A DNA stretch of 20,550 nt from Candidatus Heimdallarchaeota archaeon (GCA_030668875.1 DAOVER010000052.1:1-20550); one strand, 5' to 3'. Positions 2,029-20,308 are shown, counted from the stretch's first letter. A program made the numbers and translations. The notes: generated from the sequence alone by a model not told the origin.

Positions 2029-4245
2029 TTATGTTCTTTTATACATGAACCGTTCCCAGTTGGATACTTCAGGAACTTGTGGAGAAAGTTCTTTTCGAGT
2101 GCGAATGGATTCTATCAGTTCCTTCTCTAGATTAACAGGAACACGATCAAATCCATCGAAAACATAACCAAAGAATGCTCTACCAGAACTATTACCTCGT
2201 ATCTCATCTGCAAGATCAATAGTTTCAGCTGTTGGTATTCTTCCTCTTATGTTAGTATTTTCTCCTTCTTGAGTCATATCTTGAATTATTCCCCTGTTCT
2301 GGGTTATTACTTTAGACATATTTCCTACATAATCAGAAGGAACCTTGATGTCAATTATTTGCATTGGTTCAAGTAAATGTGGTTCACTGGTTAAGAAGGA
2401 TGTATGATATGCAGCCAAACACATTTGGAAAATTTCTGTAAACCCTGTATGAGCTGGGTCTACGTGAATGGTAGCATCTGTAATCATCCACCTTGAACCC
2501 ATTAATGGTTCTTTTGCCAATGTTGCTCCATCACAGAAATCTTCGAAAACTTGGATAACATATGCCTTAATATTATCTAATCTTTGAACACCAGAGGTAG
2601 CATCTACAAGTACATTTGTGTCTTTTATAGTCCAGATTCTTCTAGCTTCCTTAGCAATCCATCCTGCTTGTTCTTGAAGTTGATTTGCTCTTTCTCTGCG
2701 TTCCATATCATTATGGATTTTACCAGATTTGAACAAATCAATGGATTCTTTATTTAATACCTCTACATGTATCATTAATCTATTGTGACCATTAGGAGAT
2801 TTGGCATGTACAGTAATACCACTTTTAGATGGAACTTCTCTGTAAACAATGATAGGATCACTTACATCAATCTGAACTTGCTCTTGAATTCGTGTTACTA
2901 AAATTTCAATTTGCAAAGGATCAATACCTGATAAAACATATGTCTTAGATTCTTGGTCATGTCTAAAAGTAGCGGTTGGGTCTGCCATTATCCATTTTGA
3001 TACTACCTCTCCTAATTTAGCAATATCTTGGGGATCTTTTGGCTTAATCGTTCTGCTAACAACTGGATCTGAAGCATAAGAAATTTCTTCAAAAGGTGTA
3101 AGCCTATTTTCATCTCCTTCTCTTACGAAAGTTTCTCCAGCTGGGGTAATAAAACCATAGATAGCAAAAAGATTCCCTGCTGGAACTTCATCTACATCAA
3201 GAATGTCTGTAATTTCCATAACTCCTAGACGTTTAATAGATGCTTTGGTTTTCTTTCCAACTAGAAATAGCGAATCTGTTTTCTTTAACGTACCTGAGTA
3301 TACTCTTCCAATAAGTGTAGGTCTCTTTGATTTGGGTTCAATAAAGATTTTTGTAATCATACCCATAAGTGGACCGTCTTTATCACAACTCAAAAGAGCT
3401 TGACCTTCAGGACTTTCAATGTCTCCGCCCCAAATTGCTGGAATTTTGACTTTTTGTCCTTCAACAGGATTTGGTAAATGTCGTATAACCATCTCTAATA
3501 GAGGTTCTTCAAGTGGTAAATTGTCCTTTAACCATTCTTTGTCATTTTCATCATATTTTGCAAAAATATCTTGGGGTCTAATCTGTAATCTTTGAAGAGT
3601 TGACATATTAAATGCCCATCCATCTTTAGCACTACCTACTGCAACTGAACCATCTTTGAAAGATACCATCCATTCTTTAGCTGAACCTTTTGGAGCGTTA
3701 TCCTTGATTAGTTTATTAACACCTGCAAGAATTGTGTCAATTTTTGCAAAAACGTCTTGGGGAGCAAGTCTGAGTTCAGAAATAAGTCTGTCTACCTTAT
3801 TAATGAAAAGCACTGGTTTGCATTTTTCAGCTAAACTTAGTCTTATGTTAGTTTCAGTCTGGGTCATAACACCTTCAAGAGCATCTACTAAAATGATAAC
3901 ACCATCACTTCCTCGAAGTGCTCTACTTACTTCTCCTGTAAAAGAAATATGTCCTGGGGTGTCGTTAATCTCACAAAGGTATGTATCCCCTTCGAATTCG
4001 TAGGATAACATTACTACACTTGTAAAAATAGTGATTCCTCTCTCTTGTTCTTCTTCATCACTATCCATCATTACTTTCTTTCCCGCATCTGCGTCCGACA
4101 TTAGACCAGCTTTACGCAGGAGATAATCACTTGTTGTTGTTTTACCATGATCAATATGAGCTGCAATAGAAAATACTCTACGCAAGTTCATAGGATGATT
4201 TTTAATCATCTCGCGGATTTCATCTGGATTCTTTACACGAACCAT
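2029..4245 (-). CDS. fusA: Translation elongation factor EF-2 family GTPase, divergent (aEF-2 paralog-like), 738 aa
   Basis: G1 AHIDHGKTT, switch I EQERGITI, G3 DTPGH, G4 NKVD, GRVYSG, PIIVYRE, SPNGHNR and the domain V region LLEPMQ are all present. The start was moved from the 4398 TTG to the ATG at 4245 (MVRVK...) because the first 51 codons of the ORF-track call are AT-rich promoter sequence. Diagnostic motifs are altered (see findings). Confidence 0.93.
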   Translation of the reverse strand: MVRVKNPDEIREMIKNHPMNLRRVFSIAAHIDHGKTTTSDYLLRKAGLMSDADAGKKVMMDSDEEEQERGITIFTSVVMLSYEFEGDTYLCEINDTPGHISFTGEVSRALRGSDGVIILVDALEGVMTQTETNIRLSLAEKCKPVLFINKVDRLISELRLAPQDVFAKIDTILAGVNKLIKDNAPKGSAKEWMVSFKDGSVAVGSAKDGWAFNMSTLQRLQIRPQDIFAKYDENDKEWLKDNLPLEEPLLEMVIRHLPNPVEGQKVKIPAIWGGDIESPEGQALLSCDKDGPLMGMITKIFIEPKSKRPTLIGRVYSGTLKKTDSLFLVGKKTKASIKRLGVMEITDILDVDEVPAGNLFAIYGFITPAGETFVREGDENRLTPFEEISYASDPVVSRTIKPKDPQDIAKLGEVVSKWIMADPTATFRHDQESKTYVLSGIDPLQIEILVTRIQEQVQIDVSDPIIVYREVPSKSGITVHAKSPNGHNRLMIHVEVLNKESIDLFKSGKIHNDMERRERANQLQEQAGWIAKEARRIWTIKDTNVLVDATSGVQRLDNIKAYVIQVFEDFCDGATLAKEPLMGSRWMITDATIHVDPAHTGFTEIFQMCLAAYHTSFLTSEPHLLEPMQIIDIKVPSDYVGNMSKVITQNRGIIQDMTQEGENTNIRGRIPTAETIDLADEIRGNSSGRAFFGYVFDGFDRVPVNLEKELIESIRTRKELSPQVPEVSNWERFMYKRT

Positions 4246-4287
4246 CTTTATCACACATTCTGTTATGACGCTAAATTTTAAGGTTGA

Positions 4288-4297
4288 ATTATAAATA
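4288..4297. promoter_or_regulatory. Overlapping back-to-back TATA boxes (TTATAAAT on +, TTTATAAT on -) in the divergent EF-2 / cof operon intergenic region
   Basis: attataaata at 4288-4297 lies about 45-50 nt upstream of the EF-2 ATG (4245) and about 120 nt upstream of the + strand operon start. Confidence 0.45.
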
Positions 4298-4409
4298 TAG
4301 TGATTCTTATGTTTTTTAACTAAAAGACTAAAGCGCACAAATCTTTCTTTTTTACCAGTAATCTCTCCGCTAAACACATATGTGTGCTTTTTCCGCAAAA
4401 TCTTAATAC

Positions 4410-5588
4410 TTGCTCACAGATTTTCAAAAGAGATATATGGTATCAGTTCGTGCCAATGCTTTAGTAGGTTCAGATTTGGAATTTGTTGAGGATGTTCGAT
4501 TTCAAATTGGCTCTGATGGTACTATAATCGATATTTCAAAAGAAGAAAAACCAACTAAATATATTTTACCATCGTCTTACCTTCTAATTCCAGGTTTTGT
4601 AAATGCTCATGTCCATGTTGGTGATGCATATCTTAAGGATCAGACTTATGGATTATCTCTTGATGAGGCAGTAGGGCTTGCTGGAGTTAAGCATAAAAAA
4701 CTAAGTTCCAGCTCAACCGCGGAAAAAATTGCAAGTATTAGAAACTCATTGGAGATGCACGTCAACAATGGTTTTACGAGTTTTATTGATTTCAGAGAAG
4801 GGGGTTTACAAGGTATTAATTTACTGAAAGAATCTCTCGTGGATTTTCCTATTCGTGGATTGATTTTAGGTCGGACATTCAATGAAGATTCACTAGTGGA
4901 AATAAGTAAACAGAGTGATGGTATAGGGTTTTCCGATGTTTTTTCTTTGGATGATGCTCTTTGTAGGGAAGCAAATATTATAAAAGAAAATAAGATTGAT
5001 CATCTAAATGCGATTCATGTATCAGAATCATTGGAGGTTATTTCTCAATCTTTAACATCCTATGGTAGAAGAGATATTGAAATAGCAATTGAGCAATTAG
5101 ATTTGGACTTCGTTATCCATGCGACTTATGCTGATAAGAAAGATTTCCAATTTTTGAAAAAGGGCGATATTGGAGTTGTATGTTGCCCCCTTACCAATTT
5201 ATATCATGGTCTAGATTTTCCTCCTTTAGAAGCCATTATTACTGAAGGAATACTTCTCGGATTAGGAACAGATAATGTCTTTTGCTGTAATCCAGACCCC
5301 TTCAGATTAATGGCTTTTTCACTTTATAACGCTCGCTCAACCAACCAACATATCACTCCAAAAAATATACTTAAAGCTTTAACTGTCAATCCTGGATTGA
5401 TGACCCAAAGAAAAATTGGACAATTGTCTATGGGATATAGTGGTGATTTTCTAGGATTTGATTTAAATAATCCTAATCTCAGATTCTCTAAAGATCTCTA
5501 TACAGCATTAACAATGCGAGCTACATCCGCTGACATAGGCTTTCATATGTACAAAGGCAGGTTAGTAAAATGGGAAAACCAGAAGTAA
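4410..5588 (+). CDS. Metal-dependent amidohydrolase superfamily protein, nucleobase-deaminase type
   Basis: PGFVNAHVHVGD (HxH at 4608-4616), IHVSE (HxxE at 5016), VIHAT and LGLGTDN (Asp at 5271) give a complete amidohydrolase metal-ligand set. C-terminal G-x-L-x-x-G-x-x-x-D motif is present (GQLSMGYSGD). The start is either TTG 4410 or ATG 4437. Confidence 0.88.
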   Translation: MLTDFQKRYMVSVRANALVGSDLEFVEDVRFQIGSDGTIIDISKEEKPTKYILPSSYLLIPGFVNAHVHVGDAYLKDQTYGLSLDEAVGLAGVKHKKLSSSSTAEKIASIRNSLEMHVNNGFTSFIDFREGGLQGINLLKESLVDFPIRGLILGRTFNEDSLVEISKQSDGIGFSDVFSLDDALCREANIIKENKIDHLNAIHVSESLEVISQSLTSYGRRDIEIAIEQLDLDFVIHATYADKKDFQFLKKGDIGVVCCPLTNLYHGLDFPPLEAIITEGILLGLGTDNVFCCNPDPFRLMAFSLYNARSTNQHITPKNILKALTVNPGLMTQRKIGQLSMGYSGDFLGFDLNNPNLRFSKDLYTALTMRATSADIGFHMYKGRLVKWENQK

Positions 5589-6259
5589 TCATAAATGTTG
5601 CAAGCACTCTTGATGGGATAATAGGTTCAGAAGAAGGTGCTCTTTCCTTATCAACAAAAGAGGATTGGTTTAGAGTACATGAGTTAAGAAATTCAGTTGA
5701 AGCGATTCTTATAGGTATTAATACAGTTCTTAACGATGATCCTCTTTTGACTGTTCGTTATGCTGAACCTAAGTCTCCTCACCCATTTAGAGTTGTATTA
5801 GATTCAAAGTGTCGAATTCATTTAGGTTCAAAAATCGTACAAGATCAAAATAGATTCCCAACAATTGTTTTTACATCTCACCAAAGTTCTGAAGAAAAGA
5901 GGAAAAAACTACAAAGTTTGGGTGTAAAAGTTGAACTTATTGAAGAAAGAGACGAAAGCAATTTTTTAGATATGAGAACGATTTTGAAAGTACTAAGCAC
6001 GAAGTATTTTGTATCTAGCGTTTTAGTAGAGGGTGGTTCAACAATTATAACACAGTTACTAAAGAAAAAATTAGTTGATGTTTTACATATCTTTTACCGA
6101 TTTGTGTTTGTTGGAAATAGGGGGGGTATAAACTTGTATAATGATAAATTAGTTCAAGATATCCAAGATGCATTGATGTTTGAAGTGGTGGAGATTACAA
6201 AATTGGATAAAGGTATTTTGGTGACACTTACACCAAAAAAGAATACAAATAATAAATAA
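5570..6259 (+). CDS. ribD: 2,5-diamino-6-ribosylamino-4(3H)-pyrimidinone 5'-phosphate reductase (stand-alone RibD C-terminal domain, archaeal ArfC/Rib7 type)
   Basis: KPEVIINVASTLDG, S-x-x-ED-x-x-RVHELR, AILIGINTVLNDDPLLTVR, RVVLDS and VLVEGG motifs of the DHFR-like RibD reductase domain. No N-terminal Zn-deaminase (HAE...PCxxC) domain. Overlaps the upstream gene by 19 nt. Confidence 0.9.
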   Translation: MGKPEVIINVASTLDGIIGSEEGALSLSTKEDWFRVHELRNSVEAILIGINTVLNDDPLLTVRYAEPKSPHPFRVVLDSKCRIHLGSKIVQDQNRFPTIVFTSHQSSEEKRKKLQSLGVKVELIEERDESNFLDMRTILKVLSTKYFVSSVLVEGGSTIITQLLKKKLVDVLHIFYRFVFVGNRGGINLYNDKLVQDIQDALMFEVVEITKLDKGILVTLTPKKNTNNK

Positions 6260-6267
6260 AAAAAGTG

Positions 6268-7371
6268 ATGCGAAAAATGAGTTTTGACCATTATCTTTCC
6301 TTGTTAAACAACGAACCTCGAGAGTTACAGAGTCTAGCAAATGAAAAAGCAAGAAATTTATTCGGTCAGACAATAACTTATTCACGTAATTTTTTTGTGC
6401 CAATTACTCATCAATGCAGAAATAAATGTGGTTATTGTAGTTTTGTTTCAGATGATGTTAACAGTTGGATTACTCCTAATTCATTTCAATCTCTATTAGA
6501 AAAAGCAATATCAGTTAAATGTTCTGAAATTCTTCTAACCTTAGGAGAGAAACCCGAGGAGAAATATGAAACTGCAAGGGAATTTTTACGAAAATACAGC
6601 TGTAACTCAACCGTTGAATATGTAAAAATGTTCTGCGAGCTTGCCTTAGAAGAAAAATTGTTGCCTCATTCGAATCTAGGTGTAATTACACTTGAGGAGC
6701 TTAGAAATTTGAAAGCTTCCAATGCTAGCCTCGGTTTAATGTTAGAATCTTCAAGTGTTCGCTTATTGAACAAAGACGAAGCTCATTACCATTCTCCTAC
6801 AAAAGACCCAAAACTAAGGCTTGAAGTCATTGAGAATGCAGGAAAACTAAGAATACCGTTTACTTCAGGTTTGCTGATAGGGATTGGAGAAACAAAGGAA
6901 GAGCGAATAGAATCTTTGATGAGATTGCAGACTATCAATAATAAACATCAACACATACAAGAAATAATTATACAAAATTTTAACCCTCAAAAAGGAACGC
7001 CTATGCAAGATTATCCTCCTCCTGAAGAGAAAGATGTTCTTCTAACCATTGCCCTATCGCGCATGATTATGGGATCCAACGTAAACATTCAAGCTCCTCC
7101 CAATCTCAATAGGAATAGAATAATTGAACTCTTAAACTATGGTGCAAATGATTTGGGGGGTATATCTCCAGTAACCATTGATTATATCAATCCAAAAATG
7201 ACATGGCAAGAAGAGAAGCATTTGGGGAAAAACTTGGAATCTAAAGACTTTTTGTTAAAACAAAGACTACCTGTGTACCCTCCATATGAAAAGTATTTAA
7301 ACAAAAGAATTCGCAAAATAATTGAGGATAAGTATAGGAATGAAGAAATTATCTCCCCCCAAAATCGATGA
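6268..7371 (+). CDS. cofG: FO synthase subunit 1 (7,8-didemethyl-8-hydroxy-5-deazariboflavin synthase CofG), radical SAM
   Basis: TYSRNFFVPITHQCRNKCGYCSF (CxxxCxxC), GEKPE, LPHSNLG, SLGLMLE, PFTSGLLIGIGET, IQEIIIQNF, IQAPPNL and NDLGGISPVTIDYINP are CofG-characteristic. The start could be GTG 6265, ATG 6268 or ATG 6277. Confidence 0.93.
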   Translation: MRKMSFDHYLSLLNNEPRELQSLANEKARNLFGQTITYSRNFFVPITHQCRNKCGYCSFVSDDVNSWITPNSFQSLLEKAISVKCSEILLTLGEKPEEKYETAREFLRKYSCNSTVEYVKMFCELALEEKLLPHSNLGVITLEELRNLKASNASLGLMLESSSVRLLNKDEAHYHSPTKDPKLRLEVIENAGKLRIPFTSGLLIGIGETKEERIESLMRLQTINNKHQHIQEIIIQNFNPQKGTPMQDYPPPEEKDVLLTIALSRMIMGSNVNIQAPPNLNRNRIIELLNYGANDLGGISPVTIDYINPKMTWQEEKHLGKNLESKDFLLKQRLPVYPPYEKYLNKRIRKIIEDKYRNEEIISPQNR

Positions 7372-8464
7372 AATCATTGATTTGACTACTTTTAGTGAAT
7401 CAAATACAAACGAAATAAAAGAAGTAACTGAATTACTAAAAAAACGTGGAAAGGAGTTATGGATACAGACAGCTTTGGCTGATGATTTAAGATATCAACA
7501 AGTTGGAGATAAAGTCACTTATGTAGTTAATCAGAACATCAATTTTTCAAATCATTGCATTGGTTCCTGTAGATTTTGTTCTTTCAACTATACTAATCAC
7601 AAAGACACCCTCAGGCCTGAAAGGCTCACTCTTGAAGATATACGACTAGAAACGGAAAAATCTTTAGCCAGAGGTTGTACTGAGTTATGTATTCAAGGTG
7701 GTTTAGATCCAGAAATAAATTTCGAATTTTATCTAGACATTTTAAAAGCAGTAAAAACCACAGCACCTAACATCCATATACATGCTTTTTCTCCCTCAGA
7801 GATAGCTTATATGTCACAAATTTCTGGTGAAACAGTGGTAGATGTATTCAAAGAACTTGCTAGGAATGGACTAGATTCTTTTCCTGGAACAGCTGCTGAA
7901 ATTCTAGTAGATGACGTCAGACAAGTAATTTGTCCAGAAAAAATATCTACAAACCAATGGGTGAATATTGTGTTAACCGGACATAGTTTAGGTTTAAGAT
8001 CTACAGCAACAATGATGTATGGGCACGTGGAAACACTGAAAAATGAAGCTGAACATCTAGTTCTTTTGAAGCATATGCAGGAAATTTCGAAAGGTTTTAC
8101 AGAATTTGTGCCTTTACCCTTTATACATAATAATACTGTTTTGTATAAATATCTTGGAGCAAGACCTGGTAGTACAGGAATGCATGATCTAGCCCTTTTC
8201 AGTTCTGCAAGATTATATCTGGGTGAACTTTTTTCAAACATTCAAACCTCTTGGGTAAAACTAGGGGCAAAATTTTCACAAATATCACTTAATGCTGGGG
8301 TTAATGATGTAGGTGGAACACTATTTTCTGAGAGCATTACCAAAAGTGCAGGGGGCAAATATGGTGAAGAGAAAACTGCTGAAGAATTTATTGACTTAAT
8401 TCGTGATGCTAATAGACTTCCTGCTCAAAGAGACACGATTTACAATATTCTCAAGAACCATTAA
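7340..8464 (+). CDS. cofH: FO synthase subunit 2 (CofH), radical SAM
   Basis: VTYVVNQNINFSNHCIGSCRFCSF, ELCIQGG, IHIHAFSPSEI, SFPGTAAEIL, ICPEKI, TATMMYGHVE, EFVPLPFIH, NIQTSWVKLG and NDVGGTLFSESITKSAG match the CofH/MqnC family, and adjacency to cofG favours CofH. ATG 7340 is preferred over the TTG at 7322. Confidence 0.92.
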   Translation: MKKLSPPKIDEIIDLTTFSESNTNEIKEVTELLKKRGKELWIQTALADDLRYQQVGDKVTYVVNQNINFSNHCIGSCRFCSFNYTNHKDTLRPERLTLEDIRLETEKSLARGCTELCIQGGLDPEINFEFYLDILKAVKTTAPNIHIHAFSPSEIAYMSQISGETVVDVFKELARNGLDSFPGTAAEILVDDVRQVICPEKISTNQWVNIVLTGHSLGLRSTATMMYGHVETLKNEAEHLVLLKHMQEISKGFTEFVPLPFIHNNTVLYKYLGARPGSTGMHDLALFSSARLYLGELFSNIQTSWVKLGAKFSQISLNAGVNDVGGTLFSESITKSAGGKYGEEKTAEEFIDLIRDANRLPAQRDTIYNILKNH

Positions 8465-8512: not shown

Positions 8513-9355
8513 ATGAATTCAAAGAAACAAACGCCTGAAATTTGGAAAGCACTTTCAAACAAAATTCGAAGGGACTTACTTTGTTTTATAGGCGAAAAAA
8601 GGGTCGTTTCTTTTACCGAAATTCAAGAACGTTTTCAGATGAAAGTGGGAACACTTTATCATCACCTTGATACTCTTGGAGAGTTAATCACTCAAGATTC
8701 AACTAAGAAATATCTGCTAGCAGAAAAGGGAAGAAGATCATATGCTTTAATAGAAGATGAATTAGATGTTTCTGCGCCTAGTCTACCAACATATGGGAAG
8801 ATGTCGTTTCTACATTCAGTTTTCTTAAGACCAGTTTTTCATTTTATAGGAAATGATTCTATTAGATCATTAGGATTCTCTATACTGCTTCTAATTGGAT
8901 TAGGGGTTGCTACATACTTCCTTTCTTTTGCACCCATCTTTCTATTTCCCTCTTTTATTGTTCCAGATTATTTTGCTCCTGTCTTCTTCTTAGTATCAAC
9001 AATAGTTACTTATCTGTTAACAGAGCTATTTGTGTCAGTTATTTTCAGAAGAAAAACTGGTAAGCTAGCCCTATTTCAAAGCATCATATTCGCTCAAATG
9101 CCATTGGTTTTATTCTGTATTCTTGAAGCACTTGTTTTTGATTTTGAGTACCCTGTTTCACCTCTGCAAATGGACATCTGGGTGATAGTGTTACTAATGT
9201 TTGTACAATTAATATTTGTAGGACTTTTGACTGAATCGATTGTCGTTATCAAGGAATTAAGGGTTGAGAAGGCTGGATTAGCTACACTTTTTGTGGTTTT
9301 TATTCTGAACGGGCTAGCATTTTTGGTTATGAACCTTCTGGAGGTCACTTTATGA
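8513..9355 (+). CDS. ArsR-like winged-helix DNA-binding domain fused to a ~5-6 TM membrane domain
   Basis: The N-terminal ALSNKIRRDLLCFI...SFTEIQERFQMKVGTLYHHLDTL...YLLAEKG is a wHTH pattern. The C-terminal ~170 aa consist of successive hydrophobic helices. Confidence 0.8.
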   Translation: MNSKKQTPEIWKALSNKIRRDLLCFIGEKRVVSFTEIQERFQMKVGTLYHHLDTLGELITQDSTKKYLLAEKGRRSYALIEDELDVSAPSLPTYGKMSFLHSVFLRPVFHFIGNDSIRSLGFSILLLIGLGVATYFLSFAPIFLFPSFIVPDYFAPVFFLVSTIVTYLLTELFVSVIFRRKTGKLALFQSIIFAQMPLVLFCILEALVFDFEYPVSPLQMDIWVIVLLMFVQLIFVGLLTESIVVIKELRVEKAGLATLFVVFILNGLAFLVMNLLEVTL

Positions 9356-9456
9356 TGAAGTTCGAGAAAAATAGAACTGAATACTTTAAACTTTATAGAA
9401 ATAAAATCTTATCAAGAGTGAAAATCATAATAAATTATGAGGGGAATGCTTCATGA
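9352..9456 (+). CDS. Putative 34-aa basic small ORF bridging two genes (MMKFEKNRTEYFKLYRNKILSRVKIIINYEGNAS)
   Basis: Not in the ORF track. Its ATG at 9352 overlaps the upstream TGA (ATGA), GGAGGT lies at 9340-9345, and its TGA overlaps the ATG at 9453 (ATGA). Confidence 0.3.
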   Translation: MMKFEKNRTEYFKLYRNKILSRVKIIINYEGNAS

Positions 9457-12400
9457 GTATCAAAAAACTTCTCCGTCTTAGGAATAGAATAGCCCCAAAT
9501 TATCCTCAAACAATTTTGGTACTTATAATCTTCCTCTCTTCCATTCTTTTTTCTCCAAATAGCATGGTTTATTCCAATTTTGAAGGAAACCATAGTGGTT
9601 TTCTAATTCAACCAATGGTTGTAGAAGAAGTTGATTTTCACCAAGAAAAACTGGATCTCATTGCTGGGAAAGATAATTCAGTAATAGCATCATTAGAGTT
9701 AAATGGTGGGCAAATTGAAACACCATTTGATCTTACATCTACAGCTTTATCACCAGTTACTCAAATTGACTTTATAATTTCTAATCAATCTCAATTTTCA
9801 AATGTTTGGTCTAATCCATTATGGCGTGTCCCAGATGGTCTGGTTGTTCGAATAAAAACACGAACTACCTCATCTAGTCGTTTAGAAGAAATTTCAAACA
9901 ATATTATAAATCTAGTCGAACAGAATTATAATTTAAATTTAAGCTTATATTCAGTGCAATCTGTTTCTTATACAGAAACGCTGATTTCTTTGTTAGCTCC
10001 AATTACTCCAGAAATAGCTTTATCACTTTTCAGTGATATTTTCTCTCCATATGACACTCTACTCTATGGTAACACAGTAATTCTAATGGAAGAAGCTATC
10101 AATCAATCTCCAGATATCTATGCTTTTGGTTATTCTCTCCAGAAGAATCTATGGTCTGTAAACGGAATAGTTAGAGGAGCTATGGTTTCACTTGCGGATA
10201 AGATATCTTTGAACGATGGTATTTACACATTCAATCTAGAAAATACTTTTGGAGATACAATTACTCCCAACCCAGATGCATTTATATCAAAAACTTCTTT
10301 CAGGATACCCTTTATAGCTAATATTACTAGCATTGATCCTTTACCTGATAATACTGGAGCAACTGTTACAGGTTCATTTGAGTGGTTGTTGAAGTATTCT
10401 TTTATTACGCGCTATCCCGATTTTAATGCAGAAATCTCATATCATCCTTCCTCATTAGCTGATTTTACTTATCCTCAAGTTGTAGTAGCAAACTCATATT
10501 CAGATCAAGTTCTCGAGGATGAAGGAGTGCTCAATATGACTTACAGCGCAACAAATATTGGTACAGATGTTGCACTAAATACATCCATAAAAATGCCAAT
10601 TCCCGGTGAGTTAGCTTCATTCATCACCAATGGCGCAGAGATACCTATAATGAAAGATGATTTAACAATAAACGAAAGTTTCTCCTCCTATATTTACCTA
10701 TATGTTCATTATTCATCATATTCACATACAATCCCGATTCTTGATACTCAGGGTTGGTATCAAAATACAACAACTTCACAACTTGAAAGATGGCAAAATG
10801 ACACAGAAATTATTCTTGACAAATATGCTACTATATACTGCTCCTCTGGTGTGTCTTCTGATCTCTATTATGAGTTTGAGCAGGATATTAAACCATATAT
10901 AGAATCTATCGGTTCTTTAACAATTCTCAATAATATTGATCAATATGGACCTATTATACAGAACAAACTCACAACTGCGGTAGGCAATGCATATAATACT
11001 GTTTTTTCAGAATTTTATGAAAACAAGACTCTGTTCCAATTTGAATCAGCTGATTTTTCATTTATACCCAGTTTTTTTGGTGATTATCTTGAATCTGTTG
11101 TTCCAAGTTTGGATATTAATGAAACCGTTGATCTCTCTTGGCAAATTACCAACATTCCAACGTCTTCAGATAAGTTCGGGGCTTTCTCTGTTCGCACTGA
11201 ATATCTTGAGGGGTACGAGTATGCAATATTCCAAACAGTTGAAAGTGACTACAAAGATTTAATGCTAACGCTTTTTGTTTTAATTAATAGTGCTGGACGT
11301 TTTCTAAGTTCATTTGATGAGGTCACAAATTCTTTCATATCATTAGGTAGTCGATATAGTTATTCAGATGTTACAGGACGAGAATATTATGGCTTAACGA
11401 ATGGTTTGAATTTACAGTTTGGAGATGATGAAGCTGTTTTGGAAAGCTCACTTACCTTAGAAGAATCAATCTATAGAGTTGGTGAGCAAATTAATTTCAA
11501 CTTGAATATCACTAATTTTGGTTCATTAGATGCTTTTGACATACATGTGGACATTGTAAACTTGAAACTTGATTCATTCTGGCAACCAACTGGCATTGTG
11601 AAGGTAAAATCCTTTGACATTGATACGATACTAATTGGTGAAGAGTTATCACATGAATTCTCAATAATTGCAAACAGTTATATCGGTCTCAACTCCTATA
11701 TAGCGCTTATTAGTTTTACTTCAGACAAAGACCAGAGTGCAGTAGAAATAGTTAACCCATGGACTGGCAATATCATACACTGGATTTATGGAGGCGAGGC
11801 TAGAAATCTTGTTAGTTCAACCTTAACATTCGGGATTTTATTGCCTCCACCGTTACTTGAGAATCAAGCAAAACAAGCCTTTCCGCTACCTGAAATCTCT
11901 ATTGAATCAGCTTTTGAAGTCAACGAAGAGGATAGCTCATTATATTTACACTATGAAATTGAAAATAAAGGAATGTCTCCAGCGAATATTTCACTTTTCC
12001 AATTTATTGATCAATCTTTACTAGATTCATTTGAAGCTAATGTGATTTATATCCACAATGAAGTCGAGACCGAACTCACAATTGAAACTTCAGTAGAGTT
12101 TGGGACTGTAAAGGTTACTTATGCTACTCTGACTCTTTACCCAGGAGATAAAATTATAATTACTATTACAGGCACAGATTTACCAGATAATTTCACTGTA
12201 CCTCCATTAATTGTGAATTATTTCTCACTTTACGAAATACTTACAACAGATTTTCAATCTATAGAATCTCAAGAGAATCCATCAACAACACTAGAGAATC
12301 CGCTAGCTTTGAAACTATCTCCATCAATAATAAGTGAAGATTCTCAAAACTACTTTATATGGTCAACTTTCTCAAATATCTTTACAATAAACATACCTAT

Positions 12401-12524
12401 CTCGAATATCTATGAGAAAATTACTTACTCCTCATTACCTCTATTCTATCCTATAGTTAGTGTAGCAGCAATCACCGTCACTCTGTCCATTGCTATGATC
12501 ATCTCAAAAATAAGAAATAAATAG
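9453..12524 (+). CDS. Large cell-surface (glyco)protein, 1023 aa, with N-terminal signal/TM, Ig-like/CARDB-type beta domains and a C-terminal TM anchor
   Basis: Basic N-terminus followed by a hydrophobic segment (ILVLIIFLSSILF). Repeated Ig-like strand motifs (LNMTYSATNIG, INFNLNITNFG, LHYEIENKG). About 15 N-x-S/T sequons. C-terminal hydrophobic helix followed by a KIRNK stop-transfer tail. Confidence 0.8.
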   Translation: MSIKKLLRLRNRIAPNYPQTILVLIIFLSSILFSPNSMVYSNFEGNHSGFLIQPMVVEEVDFHQEKLDLIAGKDNSVIASLELNGGQIETPFDLTSTALSPVTQIDFIISNQSQFSNVWSNPLWRVPDGLVVRIKTRTTSSSRLEEISNNIINLVEQNYNLNLSLYSVQSVSYTETLISLLAPITPEIALSLFSDIFSPYDTLLYGNTVILMEEAINQSPDIYAFGYSLQKNLWSVNGIVRGAMVSLADKISLNDGIYTFNLENTFGDTITPNPDAFISKTSFRIPFIANITSIDPLPDNTGATVTGSFEWLLKYSFITRYPDFNAEISYHPSSLADFTYPQVVVANSYSDQVLEDEGVLNMTYSATNIGTDVALNTSIKMPIPGELASFITNGAEIPIMKDDLTINESFSSYIYLYVHYSSYSHTIPILDTQGWYQNTTTSQLERWQNDTEIILDKYATIYCSSGVSSDLYYEFEQDIKPYIESIGSLTILNNIDQYGPIIQNKLTTAVGNAYNTVFSEFYENKTLFQFESADFSFIPSFFGDYLESVVPSLDINETVDLSWQITNIPTSSDKFGAFSVRTEYLEGYEYAIFQTVESDYKDLMLTLFVLINSAGRFLSSFDEVTNSFISLGSRYSYSDVTGREYYGLTNGLNLQFGDDEAVLESSLTLEESIYRVGEQINFNLNITNFGSLDAFDIHVDIVNLKLDSFWQPTGIVKVKSFDIDTILIGEELSHEFSIIANSYIGLNSYIALISFTSDKDQSAVEIVNPWTGNIIHWIYGGEARNLVSSTLTFGILLPPPLLENQAKQAFPLPEISIESAFEVNEEDSSLYLHYEIENKGMSPANISLFQFIDQSLLDSFEANVIYIHNEVETELTIETSVEFGTVKVTYATLTLYPGDKIIITITGTDLPDNFTVPPLIVNYFSLYEILTTDFQSIESQENPSTTLENPLALKLSPSIISEDSQNYFIWSTFSNIFTINIPISNIYEKITYSSLPLFYPIVSVAAITVTLSIAMIISKIRNK

Positions 12525-12939: not shown

Positions 12940-15486
12940 ATGAAATGTCCTGATTGTGATAAACCCTTGACGGTCGAGCGAAAGACTTCCTTAGTAAGCT
13001 TTCACTGTGGCTTTTGTGGGTTCGCTGAAAAAATCCAATCAGTGGAAATAAATGATGCTTATAGTAAACTGCTCAAGAAAGAATCAACAAGAAAGGAGAT
13101 GCTAACTCCTTCTAGAAGTAACGGTGAAGCACTGGAATTTTCTTTCAAACGGAAAACTGATGCAGAAAAAGAGAAAATGATTGAAAAAGCTGGTTACGAT
13201 CCAAAAAACCTTCCTTTAGCTGTAAAGAAAATAATCAACAATCCAGATATTGAACTCATTTATTATGCTTTCTTGAAACAGAGGAAGCCACCATTGGGCA
13301 AAATTGCTATTAATTTACCATCTGATTTCCAGACTTACTTGAAAGAACTTGGAATAAAACAGTTGTACTCTTTCCAAACTGAATCTTTTGAAGCTATTGA
13401 CAAAGGTGAGAACATTGTAATCGTTGCGCCTACTGGGACAGGAAAAACAGAAGCGTTTGTTTTACCCGTTTTAGCAAAAATTCTAGAAGAGTCTCCTCAT
13501 CCTCTTATGAGAAGAGGTCTATTTGCGATTATAATCTATCCTACCAAAGCTTTGGCAAAAGACCAACAAAGAAAAATAATGAGATATGGTAAAAAGTTGG
13601 GTATAACATGTGAAGTTTATGATGGAGATACTCCACAGACAACTAGAACAAAAATTATGGAGAATCCACCAAACATTCTGATAACTAACCCTGACATGCT
13701 TCATATTCACATGAAAAATCATAATTTCAAAGCTATTATTCGTTCCGTTAAATTCGTTATTATTGATGAAATTCATGTAGCTGTTGGTGCATTTGGTTCT
13801 AATCTATATTTCATTCTGAAGAGACTACAAAGGATTGCTAAAAATAGCATACAATTTATAGGTTCTTCTGCTACTATTGGAAACGCAAAGGAATTCGCAT
13901 GTAATTTATTTGATACAGATGTCAAGGAAATTGCTGTAGGAGAAGCAAGAAAGGCTCCAACACATCTACTAATTACATTACCGTGGGGAGTAAGTCAATA
14001 TACTATTACCTCAGAAATTGCTCGTCAATTGGTGTCTTCAGGTCATAAAACACTTTGTTTCCAGAATAGTCATAAAAATGCTGAGATTGTGAATCTGCTT
14101 TTACAAGCCGCAAGAATTAAGTCGTCTGTTCACCGTGCTGGTCTAACTAAAGAATTTCGAAATAAAGTAGAAACCCGTTTCAAGAAAGGAGATCTTCAAG
14201 CCTTAGTTTCGACACCTACACTAGAGCTAGGCATCGACATTGGGGATGTAGATGGTGTTGTATCTTCAATTGTCGATATAACTAGTTTCATCCAACGAAT
14301 TGGTAGAGCTGGTAGGAAGGGACAAGAATCAGTCGGTGCTCTCATACTTAGGAATGATGATCCAATCAGCACATTTTACAGTTTATACCCAGAGACATAT
14401 TTCGATGATGTAAGAAAAGGTTATGTCGAACCAAGAAACAAAATTGTTTCCTATTATCAGCTCTTAGCTTCTATACTTGAGAAACCCTTGCAAGAAAAAG
14501 AGTTTCCTGAACACATTTCCATGCTGAAAATGCTTGAAGAAAGCAACTTGATTCGAAAAACCTCGGAAGATCTTTATAGACCAGTAAATAGGAAAGAAAT
14601 TCTTAGTATATTACGATCATATTCTATTCGAGGAATTGGAGACACCGTTTTGATAAAGGGTGATAATGGAATTCGAATGGGTGAAAGGTCGATGCCTATG
14701 GCTGCAAGAGAACTGTTCCCTGGGGCAATTTATTTGCTTGGAGGAAAGCACTATCGTTCTACATCTTTCAAATATGATGCAAGATTTGGTGGTGGAGAAA
14801 TAGCGTTAGAAAAAATCGAAGCACTTAATCTCAAAACTTCAGCTATGCGATATGCTGTCCCTTCTATAATAAAAATAAATGAGAAAAAACAAGTACTGGG
14901 TGCTGATGTAGCCTATTGTGATTTAAAAATAACTGAAAATGTGATAGGATACAAAATAAGTGAAATTTATTCCAGCAAACTGAAGGAGATTAAAGAGTTG
15001 GAGGAACCTATTGTTTATTCATTTCAAACAAAAGGATTTGTTTTCACAGCACCAAAACCTACAATGGTTTTATCTGAATATCCTAATCTATCAGAAGAAA
15101 TCCTAATGAGCGGAGCTTTCCATGCTCTTGAACATGTTTTGATTGAATCAAGTTCTATGCTAACAGGGGGAGGTAGTGCAGAAATAGGTGGGATTTCTAT
15201 GGGTAGCTCGGGAGCTATTTTTGTTTACGATGCTGCAAAAGGTGGGAGTGGATTAGTCAAATTGCTTTATGATAGATTAGAAGATGGTTTTGAAAGATCT
15301 CTGAAAATTCTTGAAGGATGTACCTGCAAAACAATAGATGGATGTCCTCGCTGTACTTACTCTTATCAGTGTGGAAATAATAATCAACCTTTGAATAAGA
15401 AAGGTGCAATAGAAGCTATAAAATTGTTAAAAACGATGAAAGTAGAATTAATAGAAAATTATAATGAATATCAAGCATATGTTTAG
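12940..15486 (+). CDS. DEAH-box SF2 helicase of the Hrq1/MrfA(YprA)/archaeal Sfth family, with a C-terminal DUF1998 Cys cluster and an N-terminal Zn ribbon
   Basis: Q motif LYSFQ, Walker A APTGTGKT, Ia YPTKALAKDQ, Ib TNPDML, II DEIH, III SSAT, V TLELGIDIG, VI QRIGRAGR, FHALEH, and C-terminal CTC...GCPRC...QCGNNN. N-terminal CPDC-x17-CGFC. Confidence 0.9.
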   Translation: MKCPDCDKPLTVERKTSLVSFHCGFCGFAEKIQSVEINDAYSKLLKKESTRKEMLTPSRSNGEALEFSFKRKTDAEKEKMIEKAGYDPKNLPLAVKKIINNPDIELIYYAFLKQRKPPLGKIAINLPSDFQTYLKELGIKQLYSFQTESFEAIDKGENIVIVAPTGTGKTEAFVLPVLAKILEESPHPLMRRGLFAIIIYPTKALAKDQQRKIMRYGKKLGITCEVYDGDTPQTTRTKIMENPPNILITNPDMLHIHMKNHNFKAIIRSVKFVIIDEIHVAVGAFGSNLYFILKRLQRIAKNSIQFIGSSATIGNAKEFACNLFDTDVKEIAVGEARKAPTHLLITLPWGVSQYTITSEIARQLVSSGHKTLCFQNSHKNAEIVNLLLQAARIKSSVHRAGLTKEFRNKVETRFKKGDLQALVSTPTLELGIDIGDVDGVVSSIVDITSFIQRIGRAGRKGQESVGALILRNDDPISTFYSLYPETYFDDVRKGYVEPRNKIVSYYQLLASILEKPLQEKEFPEHISMLKMLEESNLIRKTSEDLYRPVNRKEILSILRSYSIRGIGDTVLIKGDNGIRMGERSMPMAARELFPGAIYLLGGKHYRSTSFKYDARFGGGEIALEKIEALNLKTSAMRYAVPSIIKINEKKQVLGADVAYCDLKITENVIGYKISEIYSSKLKEIKELEEPIVYSFQTKGFVFTAPKPTMVLSEYPNLSEEILMSGAFHALEHVLIESSSMLTGGGSAEIGGISMGSSGAIFVYDAAKGGSGLVKLLYDRLEDGFERSLKILEGCTCKTIDGCPRCTYSYQCGNNNQPLNKKGAIEAIKLLKTMKVELIENYNEYQAYV

Positions 15487-16017: not shown

Positions 16018-16105
16018 GAATACAAACAGATTTTAATATTATATTTTCTTTCTTGTGAATGAAGTATTGTGCTCTAAATGACTTCCAAAAGGATTGATTA
16101 TTTAT

Positions 16106-17011
16106 ATGCAGAAAGAAGAGTTACTTGAAATTCTAGATGAGCATCTATTTGGCAATTCGTATTTGAACGAGGAAAAACTAGCTAACAAAATATCTTTGTC
16201 GTCTAGCCAAGTTAAGGATTATTTTCTCCAACAAAATGACCGAACAGGCTTTCTAAAGGAAGGAAAACAGATATTTTTTGCCCATGAACTGATTCGATCG
16301 TGTCTTGATAAGATTCATGATACATTTTGGAAGTGGTACTTATATACAGTTCCTAGCCATAGTGAGCTTTCCTGGGAGGAAGGAGCGGGAATGGTAGACG
16401 TTTCAAGAATACGAGTCATTCCTCAGAAGAAACCAAAGGGGGGAATAGTACAATCATTTTCTGCAAGGATAATTCTATTAGGTGAAGAAAGAGTTGGAAA
16501 ACAATCGTTTGTTTACGCTTTGTCAGGAGAAACACCAAACCAACCTGCTCCCGGTGTGTTTTTTGGGAAGATTGTTCGCGCTTCAGATGCTTTCAATATA
16601 GATTTTGAGAGTGTTATTCTAGACATCCCTCCAGAATCACCTCATTGGTTGTATGCTAAAGCTAGTTTTGGGGTGATATTAGTGTATGATGCCAGTAACT
16701 CATCTACTCATGATAAAATAAAGAGATGGTTGGAAACATTTCTTGGTAATTATTCTTATGACCTATGCCCCCCTATAATGATTCTTGGCAATAAAATTGA
16801 TTTAATCAGTGAGATTGAATTAAATGAATTGAAAAAGAAAGTAGAATCAGATAGGCTTGAAATGGAAAAAGAATACGGGACAATAGTTCTAGCAGAATTC
16901 ATATCTTGTACAAACGGAAGCAACGTTCTAAGTGCATTTGAAAACTTTGCATTTACTGTTAGACAATGGTATCAAATAATAAAAGAAGAATATTCTGATG
17001 AAATTAAGTAA
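16106..17011 (+). CDS. N-terminal helical (HTH-like) domain fused to a degenerate Ras/Rab/Roc-like small GTPase domain
   Basis: C-terminal ~185 aa: IILLGEERVGKQS (G1), VILVYD, IMILGNKIDL (G4) and FISCTNG (G5-like); G3 reads DIPPE. ATG 16106 is preferred over TTG 16094. Confidence 0.8.
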   Translation: MQKEELLEILDEHLFGNSYLNEEKLANKISLSSSQVKDYFLQQNDRTGFLKEGKQIFFAHELIRSCLDKIHDTFWKWYLYTVPSHSELSWEEGAGMVDVSRIRVIPQKKPKGGIVQSFSARIILLGEERVGKQSFVYALSGETPNQPAPGVFFGKIVRASDAFNIDFESVILDIPPESPHWLYAKASFGVILVYDASNSSTHDKIKRWLETFLGNYSYDLCPPIMILGNKIDLISEIELNELKKKVESDRLEMEKEYGTIVLAEFISCTNGSNVLSAFENFAFTVRQWYQIIKEEYSDEIK

Positions 17012-17101: not shown

Positions 17102-18787
17102 ATGGATCAACTCATTCAATTAAGGTCAGAATACAAAAGCAAGGAATCTAAAAGAAAGAAACGCATTCACATTTTCATTATCATATTGATTTGTATCTTA
17201 CTATTCTGTTTATCTCTTATTCTGAAAAACATCATGTCAGATTGGTACTGGAGTTTTCGCAGAAGTATAGGAGGAGGCTTCTCTTGGAACCAAGTCAACT
17301 CCACAGAAATCTATCAAGCTTGGTATGCTAATGTGTATTGGGAAGGTTTTAACAATGATTTTGGGACGATTGTATCTGTTAATACTTGGCACATTGAAGC
17401 ATATGTTGATGCTTCGTATTATTATGAACCTTATCTTTACAATTTCCGATTTCTTAATTGGAACCCATACGCTGGAGGGGAAGGACCTCTTGCAGGATAT
17501 GCTTATGGACCGATATTCATCTATGGACTATCTTTGATCTCTTTATTTGTTAGTTTACTCAATCCAAATATGAGTAGAACTATCACTGTATCAGAATCAG
17601 TGAAATGGACACATATTGTATTTGATTCACTATGTGTAGTGATGTTATATCTGATTGTAATCTCTCTGAGAGCATTCAAAGATAAAAAAACGAAAAAGCA
17701 CATTATTGGATTTTTGGGTGCTTCTTCGTTAATGCTAATGCCAATAAATCTACTTTATGTGGATAGTATTTATCTAAACATTCCTCAAATGACTTTGTTT
17801 ACAATGATTGCTTTACTTCTCTTTATGAGGGAGAAGTATAAATTATCAGCTTTTATGCTTACAATTGCTTGGTTGTCAAAGCAAATGCCTCTATTCCTTT
17901 TAGCTCCTTGGTTTTTAATAATATGGAAAAAGAAGAACCTAAGAACAGCTATAATTGATTTTCTTTTTACTTTCCTGCTCACCTCATTCATCATCTCTAT
18001 CCCATGGGTGTTTGTTTCTCCATACGATTATTTCGCAAAGCTTTTTGGTCCTGGAAAACCTTTAGCTGTATTAAGTTTGGAAGACGCTTATAGAGGAAGC
18101 ACTGTAACATTAGCGCACACTTTTCTATACCTTGGAAGCGAATCACTAGCACAATTTTACAAAGTAATTAATGATTACATGGTGCCGTTTCTACTAATTT
18201 ACATAATTTCTTTATTAATTACATATTTTAGAGGAAAGGAAATTGGAAAAGGTGAATCCTTGTTCACATTACATACTACTTGGATAATTCTTATCTCTCA
18301 TGCATTTCTTTCTAGAGGCGTTTACAAGTATTATGATGCTTTCATTACACCATTTATTGTGTTAGTGATAATATTATACTCAGATAAATTTATCTGTATT
18401 GTAATTAAGAAATTAAGAAAAGGACCCCAGTTTGCATCTCACAAAGATTTGAAGGGCAATGAAAACGAAGAAAAGACTCAGAAGATCTGGATTACAGCAC
18501 TTCAAGAATCATTATTTTACGTTCTATTTCTAGGATTAACAGCTTTATTCTATTACTTCAATTTCATTATAATAACAAAATCAAGATTCTTGCACCCCTT
18601 ATATCTGCTAATTTCATTTGCGGTTGTAAGCGTTCTCTTTCCACCCTCTATACTCATAAGTTTGTTTGAAATTAAAAATTATAAAATGTTAAAAGAGGAT
18701 ATAGTCTTAATCTTTAAGAGTATCCTTCAATTTTTCAAGAAAATATTTATTCAAAAAAATTGGACAAAAGTAATACTTGAGGATTAA
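17102..18787 (+). CDS. GT-C fold polytopic membrane glycosyltransferase (GT87/DUF2029/PIG-M-like)
   Basis: First TM followed by a large aromatic-rich external loop ending NPY...YAYGPIF, then many TMs with the GT-C style A-x-L-S-K-Q-x-P motif (AWLSKQMPLFLLAPW) and ISIPW. Exact family and sugar specificity cannot be assigned by eye. Confidence 0.65.
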   Translation: MDQLIQLRSEYKSKESKRKKRIHIFIIILICILLFCLSLILKNIMSDWYWSFRRSIGGGFSWNQVNSTEIYQAWYANVYWEGFNNDFGTIVSVNTWHIEAYVDASYYYEPYLYNFRFLNWNPYAGGEGPLAGYAYGPIFIYGLSLISLFVSLLNPNMSRTITVSESVKWTHIVFDSLCVVMLYLIVISLRAFKDKKTKKHIIGFLGASSLMLMPINLLYVDSIYLNIPQMTLFTMIALLLFMREKYKLSAFMLTIAWLSKQMPLFLLAPWFLIIWKKKNLRTAIIDFLFTFLLTSFIISIPWVFVSPYDYFAKLFGPGKPLAVLSLEDAYRGSTVTLAHTFLYLGSESLAQFYKVINDYMVPFLLIYIISLLITYFRGKEIGKGESLFTLHTTWIILISHAFLSRGVYKYYDAFITPFIVLVIILYSDKFICIVIKKLRKGPQFASHKDLKGNENEEKTQKIWITALQESLFYVLFLGLTALFYYFNFIIITKSRFLHPLYLLISFAVVSVLFPPSILISLFEIKNYKMLKEDIVLIFKSILQFFKKIFIQKNWTKVILED

Positions 18788-19573: not shown

Positions 19574-20308
19574 ATGTCAATTGAACCTAAACGAGCTTAT
19601 AAAATAGTCTTAATTGGTGATCCCGAGGTTGGGAAAACATCTATTAGACGGAAGTACATGGGAAAATCTTTCAGGGCTGACTATCTAAAGACATTAGGCG
19701 CTGATTTTGCAGCTCAGAAAGTAAATGTTGAAGGAGAATTAGTACTATTGACTATTTGGGATTTAGCTGGACAATCAATATTCCATGGAATGCGCTCTTC
19801 TTTCTATCATGGTTGCAAATGTGCTCTCATTGTCTTTGATGTAACAAACGCCTCATCATTGGAAAACTGTTTGAAGTGGGGAGAAGAAGCTGTAAGATTT
19901 GCTAAAAACTCCTTGAAAAAAATTTACTTGATAGGAAATAAAATAGATCTAACAGATGATGTAGCAATAACACAAGAAGATGTGAACAAAGTAGTAAAAC
20001 AATTTGAAGAAATAGTAAAATTCCCGGTGAAAACATATGAAACCTCTGCTCTAACAGGTGAAAATATTAACGAACTCTTTGAACATATGAGTAAGAGTCT
20101 AATAATTGGTGAAGATGAAGAAGTAGTTGCAGTGAAAACTGAGACTGTAAACCAAGAGAAAGAGCTGGAAGTACAGATTGATATGAAAGAAATGAGCAAT
20201 AAGGAAAAACTATCTCGTCTAATATCTCTTGTGGAAGATTTAGAAAATAAAATGAATGAAGTATCCAAGGCACTGAAAGAAGTAAAAGACTCACTTGAGA
20301 ACACGTGA
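19574..20308 (+). CDS. Rab-like small GTPase with C-terminal coiled coil
   Basis: G1 GDPEVGKTS, G2 YLKTLGADF, G3 WDLAGQ, G4 NKIDL and G5 ETSAL are all canonical. The ~65-aa C-terminal extension ends in heptad repeats. No CaaX/CC prenylation motif. Confidence 0.92.
   Translation: MSIEPKRAYKIVLIGDPEVGKTSIRRKYMGKSFRADYLKTLGADFAAQKVNVEGELVLLTIWDLAGQSIFHGMRSSFYHGCKCALIVFDVTNASSLENCLKWGEEAVRFAKNSLKKIYLIGNKIDLTDDVAITQEDVNKVVKQFEEIVKFPVKTYETSALTGENINELFEHMSKSLIIGEDEEVVAVKTETVNQEKELEVQIDMKEMSNKEKLSRLISLVEDLENKMNEVSKALKEVKDSLENT

Follow-up and report, generated by a model that had tools for sequence, protein, structure and literature searches.

The window analysed here is a 20,550-nucleotide stretch of Candidatus Heimdallarchaeota DNA (GCA_030668875.1 DAOVER010000052.1:1-20550) that forms contig C89 of a 3.23-Mb genome (99 contigs, 92% complete, G+C content of ~34%); its closest homologues carry the name Heimdallarchaeaceae, and the sequencing runs containing its DNA are marine-sediment and cold-seep DNA runs and metagenomes. 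At positions 4410-8464 it holds four genes, all on the + strand, for an amidohydrolase-superfamily enzyme of the deaminase type, which is the subject of this analysis, a stand-alone pyrimidine reductase (ArfC), and CofG and CofH, the two radical S-adenosylmethionine (radical-SAM) subunits of FO synthase. A first-pass annotation of the sequence had described these as an operon encoding consecutive deaminase, reductase and FO synthase steps, with the amidohydrolase as a candidate for the missing archaeal pyrimidine deaminase of flavin and F420 biosynthesis. The co-oriented arrangement was borne out by the open reading frame (ORF) listing (4410-5588, 5570-6259, 6265-7371 and 7322-8464), and the reported junctions of -19, +8 and -32 nucleotides (nt) were confirmed by direct reading of the sequence. 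The amidohydrolase (4437-5588) likely starts at ATG 4437, matching the 383 amino acid (aa) public form, TTG 4410 being merely the start of the longest ORF. The reductase gene (5570-6259, starting with ATG) shares its first 19 nt with the end of the amidohydrolase gene (stop 5586-5588), the cofG ATG (6268-7371; alternative start GTG 6265) comes 8 nt after the reductase stop at 6259, and the cofH ATG (7340-8464; alternative start TTG 7322) overlaps cofG, with its stop at 7371, by 32 nt. The four genes are probably co-transcribed.

CofG and CofH both exceed the cut-offs of their equivalog models (NF004884, 404.9 bits with a cut-off of 209, and TIGR03551, 442.9 bits with a cut-off of 374.1, respectively), CofH also matching PF19288 (CofH_C). 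The 229-aa reductase consists of the RibD C-terminal domain only (RibD_C, PF01872, 1.2e-36) and has no deaminase domain, as had been observed at first reading; it just met the cut-off of TIGR00227 (150.7 bits, cut-off 150.15) and scored 154 bits on the archaeal model TIGR01508 against a cut-off of 186.45. It is the sole RibD_C gene of the genome.

The amidohydrolase itself belongs to PF01979 (Amidohydro_1, 9.8e-21) and matched the NCBIfam model NF005552 (PRK07213, “chlorohydrolase”) over almost its full length (E 3.6e-71, 240 bits, model positions 3-374 of 382; curated cut-off 294), the second-best family reaching 66 bits. In a Pfam search it showed no match to PF00383, the zinc domain of the cytidine-deaminase (CDA) fold, and its fold was not that of the creatininases to which ArfB belongs (PF02633). 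The HxH, HxxE, H and D ligands noted in the first-pass annotation correspond to H58-x-H60, H194-x-x-E197, H228 and D279 (383-aa numbering) and were invariant in an alignment of 17 diverse family sequences, together with N56, D63, K85, E121 (within a DFRE motif), R146, C250, G277, T278 and N280; R120 and R361 are further residues invariant in the family. H58/H60, H194, H228 and D279 are predicted to bind metal and water in a mononuclear deaminase of the amidohydrolase type, with E197 as the Glu of HxxE. Within the superfamily, HxxE combined with one HxH/H/D metal site is the signature of the deaminase/chlorohydrolase group and not of phosphatases. Among four homologues, an in-frame TGA was considered as a possible selenocysteine codon and rejected; it is a true stop lying a few codons ahead of the end of the alignment.

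An AlphaFold model of the amidohydrolase (pLDDT 94.8, pTM 0.93) places the ligand residues at, or just past, the C-termini of four predicted strands. On the analogy of cog0402 enzymes, these are taken to be barrel strands 1, 5, 6 and 8. None of the solved structures is close by sequence (the closest being AtzA, E 8e-11), and the most similar folds are those of cog0402 deaminases and chlorohydrolases (TM-score 0.85–0.88, identity 14–18%), fold neighbours including the isocytosine deaminase Vcz, guanine deaminases and methylthioadenosine (MTA)/adenosine deaminases. Isocytosine and guanine deaminases of this fold remove the C2 amino group from a 2-amino-4-oxo-pyrimidine ring, the type of reaction that this pathway requires. 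Vcz/8-oxoguanine deaminase and the amidohydrolase-type guanine deaminases (PDB 7WW2, 8IS4, 3HPA, 2I9U and 6OHB; TM-score 0.76–0.88 on the model) share with the proposed riboflavin step the C2 deamination of this ring, but they are only 14–18% identical to the amidohydrolase, act on free bases instead of a ribityl-phosphate-substituted diaminopyrimidine and are not linked with rib or cof genes.

In a FastTree phylogeny of 124 family sequences and four paralogs from the same genome, with placement read from topology without support values, the amidohydrolase fell inside a clade containing MTH_994 and thaumarchaeal and Asgard members from rib operons, and a long branch parted this clade from the DadD, MtaD and SsnA paralogs of the same genome. 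It is 30–38% identical to the thaumarchaeal and methanogen members. The family is pan-archaeal and usually single-copy: NF005552 was found above its cut-off and as a single copy in 120/121 high-quality genomes of the Methanobacteria phylum and, at E<=1e-50, in each of the four archaeal controls (M. jannaschii, H. volcanii, S. acidocaldarius and M. acetivorans), with no match at that threshold in ten bacterial control genomes. Clustering at 50% (E<=1e-30) gave about 181 family clusters from Archaeoglobi, Methanosarcinales, Halobacteria, Cenarchaeum, Altiarchaeota and others, and the member from M. thermautotrophicus is the Swiss-Prot entry “Putative aminohydrolase MTH_994”.

The gene neighborhood of the amidohydrolase is strongly conserved. 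Within the same taxonomic family the order elongation factor 2 (EF-2) paralog, amidohydrolase, RibD_C and CofG was kept in 28/28 loci, down to 39% identity, and the amidohydrolase-RibD_C-CofG arrangement is therefore not due to chance. The amidohydrolase directly abuts RibD_C in 30/30 and 33/40 Asgard loci, with or without cofGH, the latter 40 being further loci from other Asgard families, where the 33 have the amidohydrolase immediately 5' of RibD_C. The complete four-gene cluster reappears in three of these families (f14, f29 and f30), and in four others (f5, f9, f12 and f23) the amidohydrolase-RibD_C pair occurs with no cofGH. A closed Asgard genome (G038) carries the order RibB-RibC(archaeal)-RibH-ArfA-amidohydrolase-ArfC-ArfB, and riboflavin operons akin to it occur in three more genomes (G002, G006 and G029).

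The same association extends beyond Asgard archaea. A scan of 185,579 species genomes gave 578 relatives, and among the best 80 loci arfA and/or arfC directly flank the amidohydrolase in 58, mostly in the order ribB-(ribC)-ribH-arfA-amidohydrolase-arfC(-arfB), with representatives in Nitrosopumilus, Nitrososphaera, Nitrosocaldus, Nitrosotalea, Bathyarchaeia, Jordarchaeia and Wukongarchaeum; in five more of these 80, a cofG/cofH cluster adjoins it, with or without arfC. Linkage of homologues to rib or cof genes, which had been set beforehand as a test of the deaminase assignment, was hence present in Asgard, thaumarchaeal and Bathyarchaeia loci. In the arfA/arfC operons every gene except the amidohydrolase has a known step. 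As a separate observation, in one Asgard locus (L054:2725-4696 of G084, family f26) a gene for a FolE2/MptA-type GTP cyclohydrolase IB precedes the amidohydrolase in place of arfA or ribA, and may represent a third route into the branch.

The phyletic pattern points in the same direction. Of 300 Asgard genomes sampled, 124 contained an amidohydrolase homologue at E<=1e-30 and RibD_C was present in all 124, a comparison of profiles of the kind suggested at the outset. Most instances in which RibD_C seemed to lack the amidohydrolase proved false when inspected: those in family f14 were contig-end cuts or frameshifts, and in families f2 and f19 the amidohydrolase is present (for example in the f2 order RibA, RibD_C, amidohydrolase) and is too divergent for the 1e-30 threshold. 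Genuine losses were seen in one genus (g14, of family f5), where the amidohydrolase and CofH, although unlinked there, are both present in four and both absent in six of 10 genomes, with RibH found in 0/10. At the vacant site beside ArfC the sister genomes have a gap of ~800 bp without any ORF of at least 80 aa (L082-L087; genomes G102, G107, G189, G279, G180 and G210), one of them, G210, keeping fragments of the amidohydrolase gene; in the five others, which were checked for CofH and RibH, neither was found, leaving ArfC there without an obvious partner. The genomes being close kin, the co-loss may have been a single event.

These data bear on the alternative raised in the first-pass annotation, that the enzyme is a DadD-like deaminase clearing 5'-deoxyadenosine (or MTA and S-adenosylhomocysteine, SAH), an inhibitory by-product of CofG and CofH. 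Such a role would account for an operon shared with two radical-SAM genes and for the joint loss with CofH in genus g14, and the enzyme does fall in the broad cog0402 group that includes DadD (MJ1541) and the MtaD MTA/SAH deaminases (NF005557 and NF012037); it shares their TIM-barrel scaffold and metal site, and MTA/adenosine deaminases are among its nearest folds. However, its score on NF005557, the model for DadD, was only 52 bits (cut-off 522) and that on NF012037 40 bits, and it is ~50–60 residues shorter and lies in a separate clade, beyond the long branch of the tree. The genome also encodes a much closer DadD-like paralog (469.5 bits, on contig C12) and two paralogs of the MtaD/chlorohydrolase type on other contigs. 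Moreover, the conserved partner is arfC, and mostly also arfA, in riboflavin operons without a radical-SAM gene nearby. This alternative is not supported and is considered extremely unlikely.

Examination of the remaining pathway genes narrows the possible roles further. A stand-alone RibA (GTP cyclohydrolase II) is encoded on contig C74 among unrelated genes, and RbkR-type riboflavin kinase, a RibL-like cytidylyltransferase (candidate FAD synthetase), CofD and two CofE genes are also present. Family models detected no ArfA, RibH, archaeal RibC, RibB or RibE in the genome, and tblastn with Asgard queries detected no RibB, RibC, RibH, ArfA or ArfB. Because RibH was found in only one of 30 family genomes, two of them closed, the missing riboflavin genes are not an assembly gap; RibA was present in 29. 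This suggests riboflavin auxotrophy with F420 prototrophy for the genome and its family (no search for a riboflavin transporter was made), an observation recorded for the whole genome (G000) and at C74:85035-85679 and C15:1465-2184 of L187. In the simplest reading, the lineage appears to salvage riboflavin and to keep GTP, RibA, the amidohydrolase and ArfC, and CofH/CofG as a route to FO and F420 only, since the searches detected genes for neither lumazine synthase nor riboflavin synthase. The single RibH of the family (G026:C1:242281-243332) adjoins a 400-aa bacterial-type RibBA fusion, which suggests that the two were acquired horizontally.

The use of RibA is informative about a further possibility, that the amidohydrolase performs another step of the branch, either as the formamide hydrolase (an ArfB substitute) or as the phosphatase acting on 5-amino-6-ribitylamino-uracil 5'-phosphate. 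Many thaumarchaeal operons do contain arfA and the amidohydrolase without arfB, as expected of an ArfB substitute, but several operons carry arfB alongside the amidohydrolase, and creatininase-family genes occur elsewhere in the Thaumarchaeota genomes examined. The present genome and family use RibA without ArfA, so that no formyl group is produced, yet keep the amidohydrolase; with neither ArfA nor ArfB in the genome there is no formyl intermediate needing removal, and the enzyme cannot be an ArfB substitute here. The only hydrolytic steps left unassigned are C2 deamination and dephosphorylation, of which the HxxE deaminase signature points to deamination. The phosphatase step lacks an assigned archaeal gene (PMC8305020) and would be available to the enzyme in this respect, but by general knowledge of the superfamily its HxxE motif and single HxH/H/D site are the mark of a deaminase or chlorohydrolase. 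Taken together, a role in either of these two steps is very unlikely.

A broader alternative is that the enzyme acts on a related 2-amino-pyrimidine or purine, in damage control or overflow of reactive riboflavin intermediates or in salvage of guanine, pterin or isocytosine, the true deaminase being encoded elsewhere, for example by a CDA-fold protein. The guanine, 8-oxoguanine/isocytosine and pterin-type deaminases among the fold neighbours are compatible with this, as are the survival of ArfC in some g14 genomes that have lost the amidohydrolase and the occurrence of two CDA-fold (PF00383) proteins in the genome. These two, the only ones of their fold encoded, have best scores as dCMP-deaminase-like and TadA-like proteins, reach 33–39 bits on the RibD model TIGR00326 (cut-off 156) and lack any rib or cof context; searches with PF00383 and TIGR00326 thus found no separate RibD-type deaminase, the presence of which had been named beforehand as evidence against the assignment. 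In addition, a gene that is single-copy and near-universal in methanogens, and that is translationally coupled between pathway genes, fits better with a core step. This alternative is regarded as improbable.

The reading favoured here is that the operon both supplies and consumes the pyrimidine precursor of FO and that the amidohydrolase is the pyrimidine C2 deaminase, which is quite likely in our assessment. The consecutive deaminase, reductase and FO synthase steps proposed in the first-pass annotation are favoured by the arfA/arfC linkage, the co-occurrence with RibD_C and the lack of a RibD-type deaminase. In the corresponding scheme, RibA would convert GTP to 2,5-diamino-6-ribosylamino-4(3H)-pyrimidinone 5'-phosphate and ArfC would reduce the ribosyl side chain to ribityl. 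The amidohydrolase, acting as a mononuclear-metal TIM-barrel deaminase with the metal held by HxH, H and D and water activated by the Glu of HxxE and a further His, would then remove the C2 amino group hydrolytically, yielding 5-amino-6-ribitylamino-uracil 5'-phosphate. After a phosphatase step, CofH and CofG would condense the product with tyrosine to FO, which CofD and CofE would extend to F420. We infer both the substrate of the amidohydrolase and the order of reduction and deamination in this scheme.

Several points weigh against this assignment. A literature search found no assay of the amidohydrolase family, most subscription journals being outside its coverage, and the present protein scores below the NF005552 cut-off (240 vs 294 bits). 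Among the best 80 loci the Methanobacteriaceae copies stand alone, without rib or cof clustering. ArfC is kept in five of the six g14 genomes that have lost the amidohydrolase and can therefore persist without it, and the co-loss with CofH would also fit the clearing of radical-SAM by-products. The phyletic counts overstate the support they give, as related genomes are not independent of each other. Finally, the two CDA-fold proteins of the genome stay formal candidates for the deaminase, because fungal RIB2 is a CDA-fold deaminase.

The bacterial RibD N-terminal domain and fungal RIB2 (CDA fold, PF00383) share with the amidohydrolase the proposed net reaction and the pathway, but the zinc-containing CDA fold and the amidohydrolase TIM barrel are unrelated, and if the assignment is confirmed the amidohydrolase would be a non-orthologous replacement of the RibD/RIB2 deaminase. 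The archaeal order of steps in the synthesis of riboflavin and the F420 precursor was established in 2002; since then, to our knowledge, no enzyme has been proven biochemically to carry out the deamination. According to Rodionova et al. 2017 (PMC5397151), Archaea apparently lack orthologues of the RibD deaminase domain, and a candidate, “PyrD”, was put forward by Osterman, Overbeek and Rodionov (2010) from co-occurrence and clustering on the chromosome, a prediction that “remains to be tested”. The candidates MJ0699 and HVO_2483 have since been listed as an open issue with regard to function (Pfeiffer and Dyall-Smith 2021, PMC8305020). The same paper cites riboflavin auxotrophy as the known outcome of deleting arfA in Haloferax volcanii. 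The remark in the first-pass annotation that clustered amidohydrolases had already been proposed is thus correct and in print (PMC5397151, PMC8305020).

It is very likely that NF005552 is this “PyrD” family (MJ0699/HVO_2483; SEED “Pyrimidine deaminase archaeal predicted”), because the model matches in M. jannaschii and H. volcanii at E<=1e-50 and because all other genes of the clustered operons have their steps assigned. The amidohydrolase described here agrees with that family in its full-length model match, catalytic residues, arfA/arfC clustering and proposed reaction. It differs in belonging to a divergent Asgard branch below the curated cut-off and in heading an arfC-cofG-cofH operon, in a genome where RibA replaces ArfA/ArfB and the riboflavin-specific genes are lacking. 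The present result is therefore a well-supported rediscovery, adding a new divergent member to a candidate family already proposed in 2010 and 2017; the new elements are the FO-only setting with RibA, by which the roles open to the enzyme are narrowed, and its joint loss with CofH. This setting makes a clean case: formylated intermediate and riboflavin branch are both missing, and a single reductase and a single candidate deaminase accompany the FO synthase that consumes the product. The Heimdall proteins, or better-behaved orthologues from methanogens or haloarchaea, offer a direct assay target with which the gap could be closed.

As regards the lineage, we lean slightly towards the view that the Heimdallarchaeaceae are riboflavin auxotrophs in which a bacterial-type RibA and the amidohydrolase-ArfC pair are kept only for the FO/F420 chromophore, so that the pathway from GTP to FO is uncoupled from vitamin B2. 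If so, the operon would be a natural minimal system in which C2 deamination is the only possible pathway role for the amidohydrolase, and the riboflavin kinase and RibL-like cytidylyltransferase would serve flavin salvage. This suggests that an entire Asgard family makes F420 yet depends on external riboflavin.

Other features of the window lie on either side of the operon. Upstream, a divergent paralog of archaeal EF-2 (2029-4245, - strand; 668 bits, cut-off 738) is transcribed away from the operon in a neighborhood kept across the family; between its ATG at 4245 and the amidohydrolase lies an AT-rich divergent intergenic region of 191 bp (4246-4436) that, as read from the sequence, is presumably the promoter region. 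Directly 3' of cofH, a gene for a 280-aa protein (8513-9355, + strand) with an N-terminal ArsR-like helix-turn-helix (HTH), weakly matching HTH_20/DUF7347 and SdpR/ArsR, is 50–69% identical to the proteins found at the same post-cofH position in five loci (L073-L077), and it may be a regulator of the operon. Three large ORFs of the window gave no Pfam match (409-1938, 9453-12524 and 17102-18787; 509, 1023 and 561 aa, respectively). The rest of the window includes a DEAD/DEAH helicase gene with a C-terminal MrfA zinc-binding domain and two genes for Ras/Rab-like small GTPases, of which one is degenerate (12940-15486, 16094-17011 and 19574-20308).

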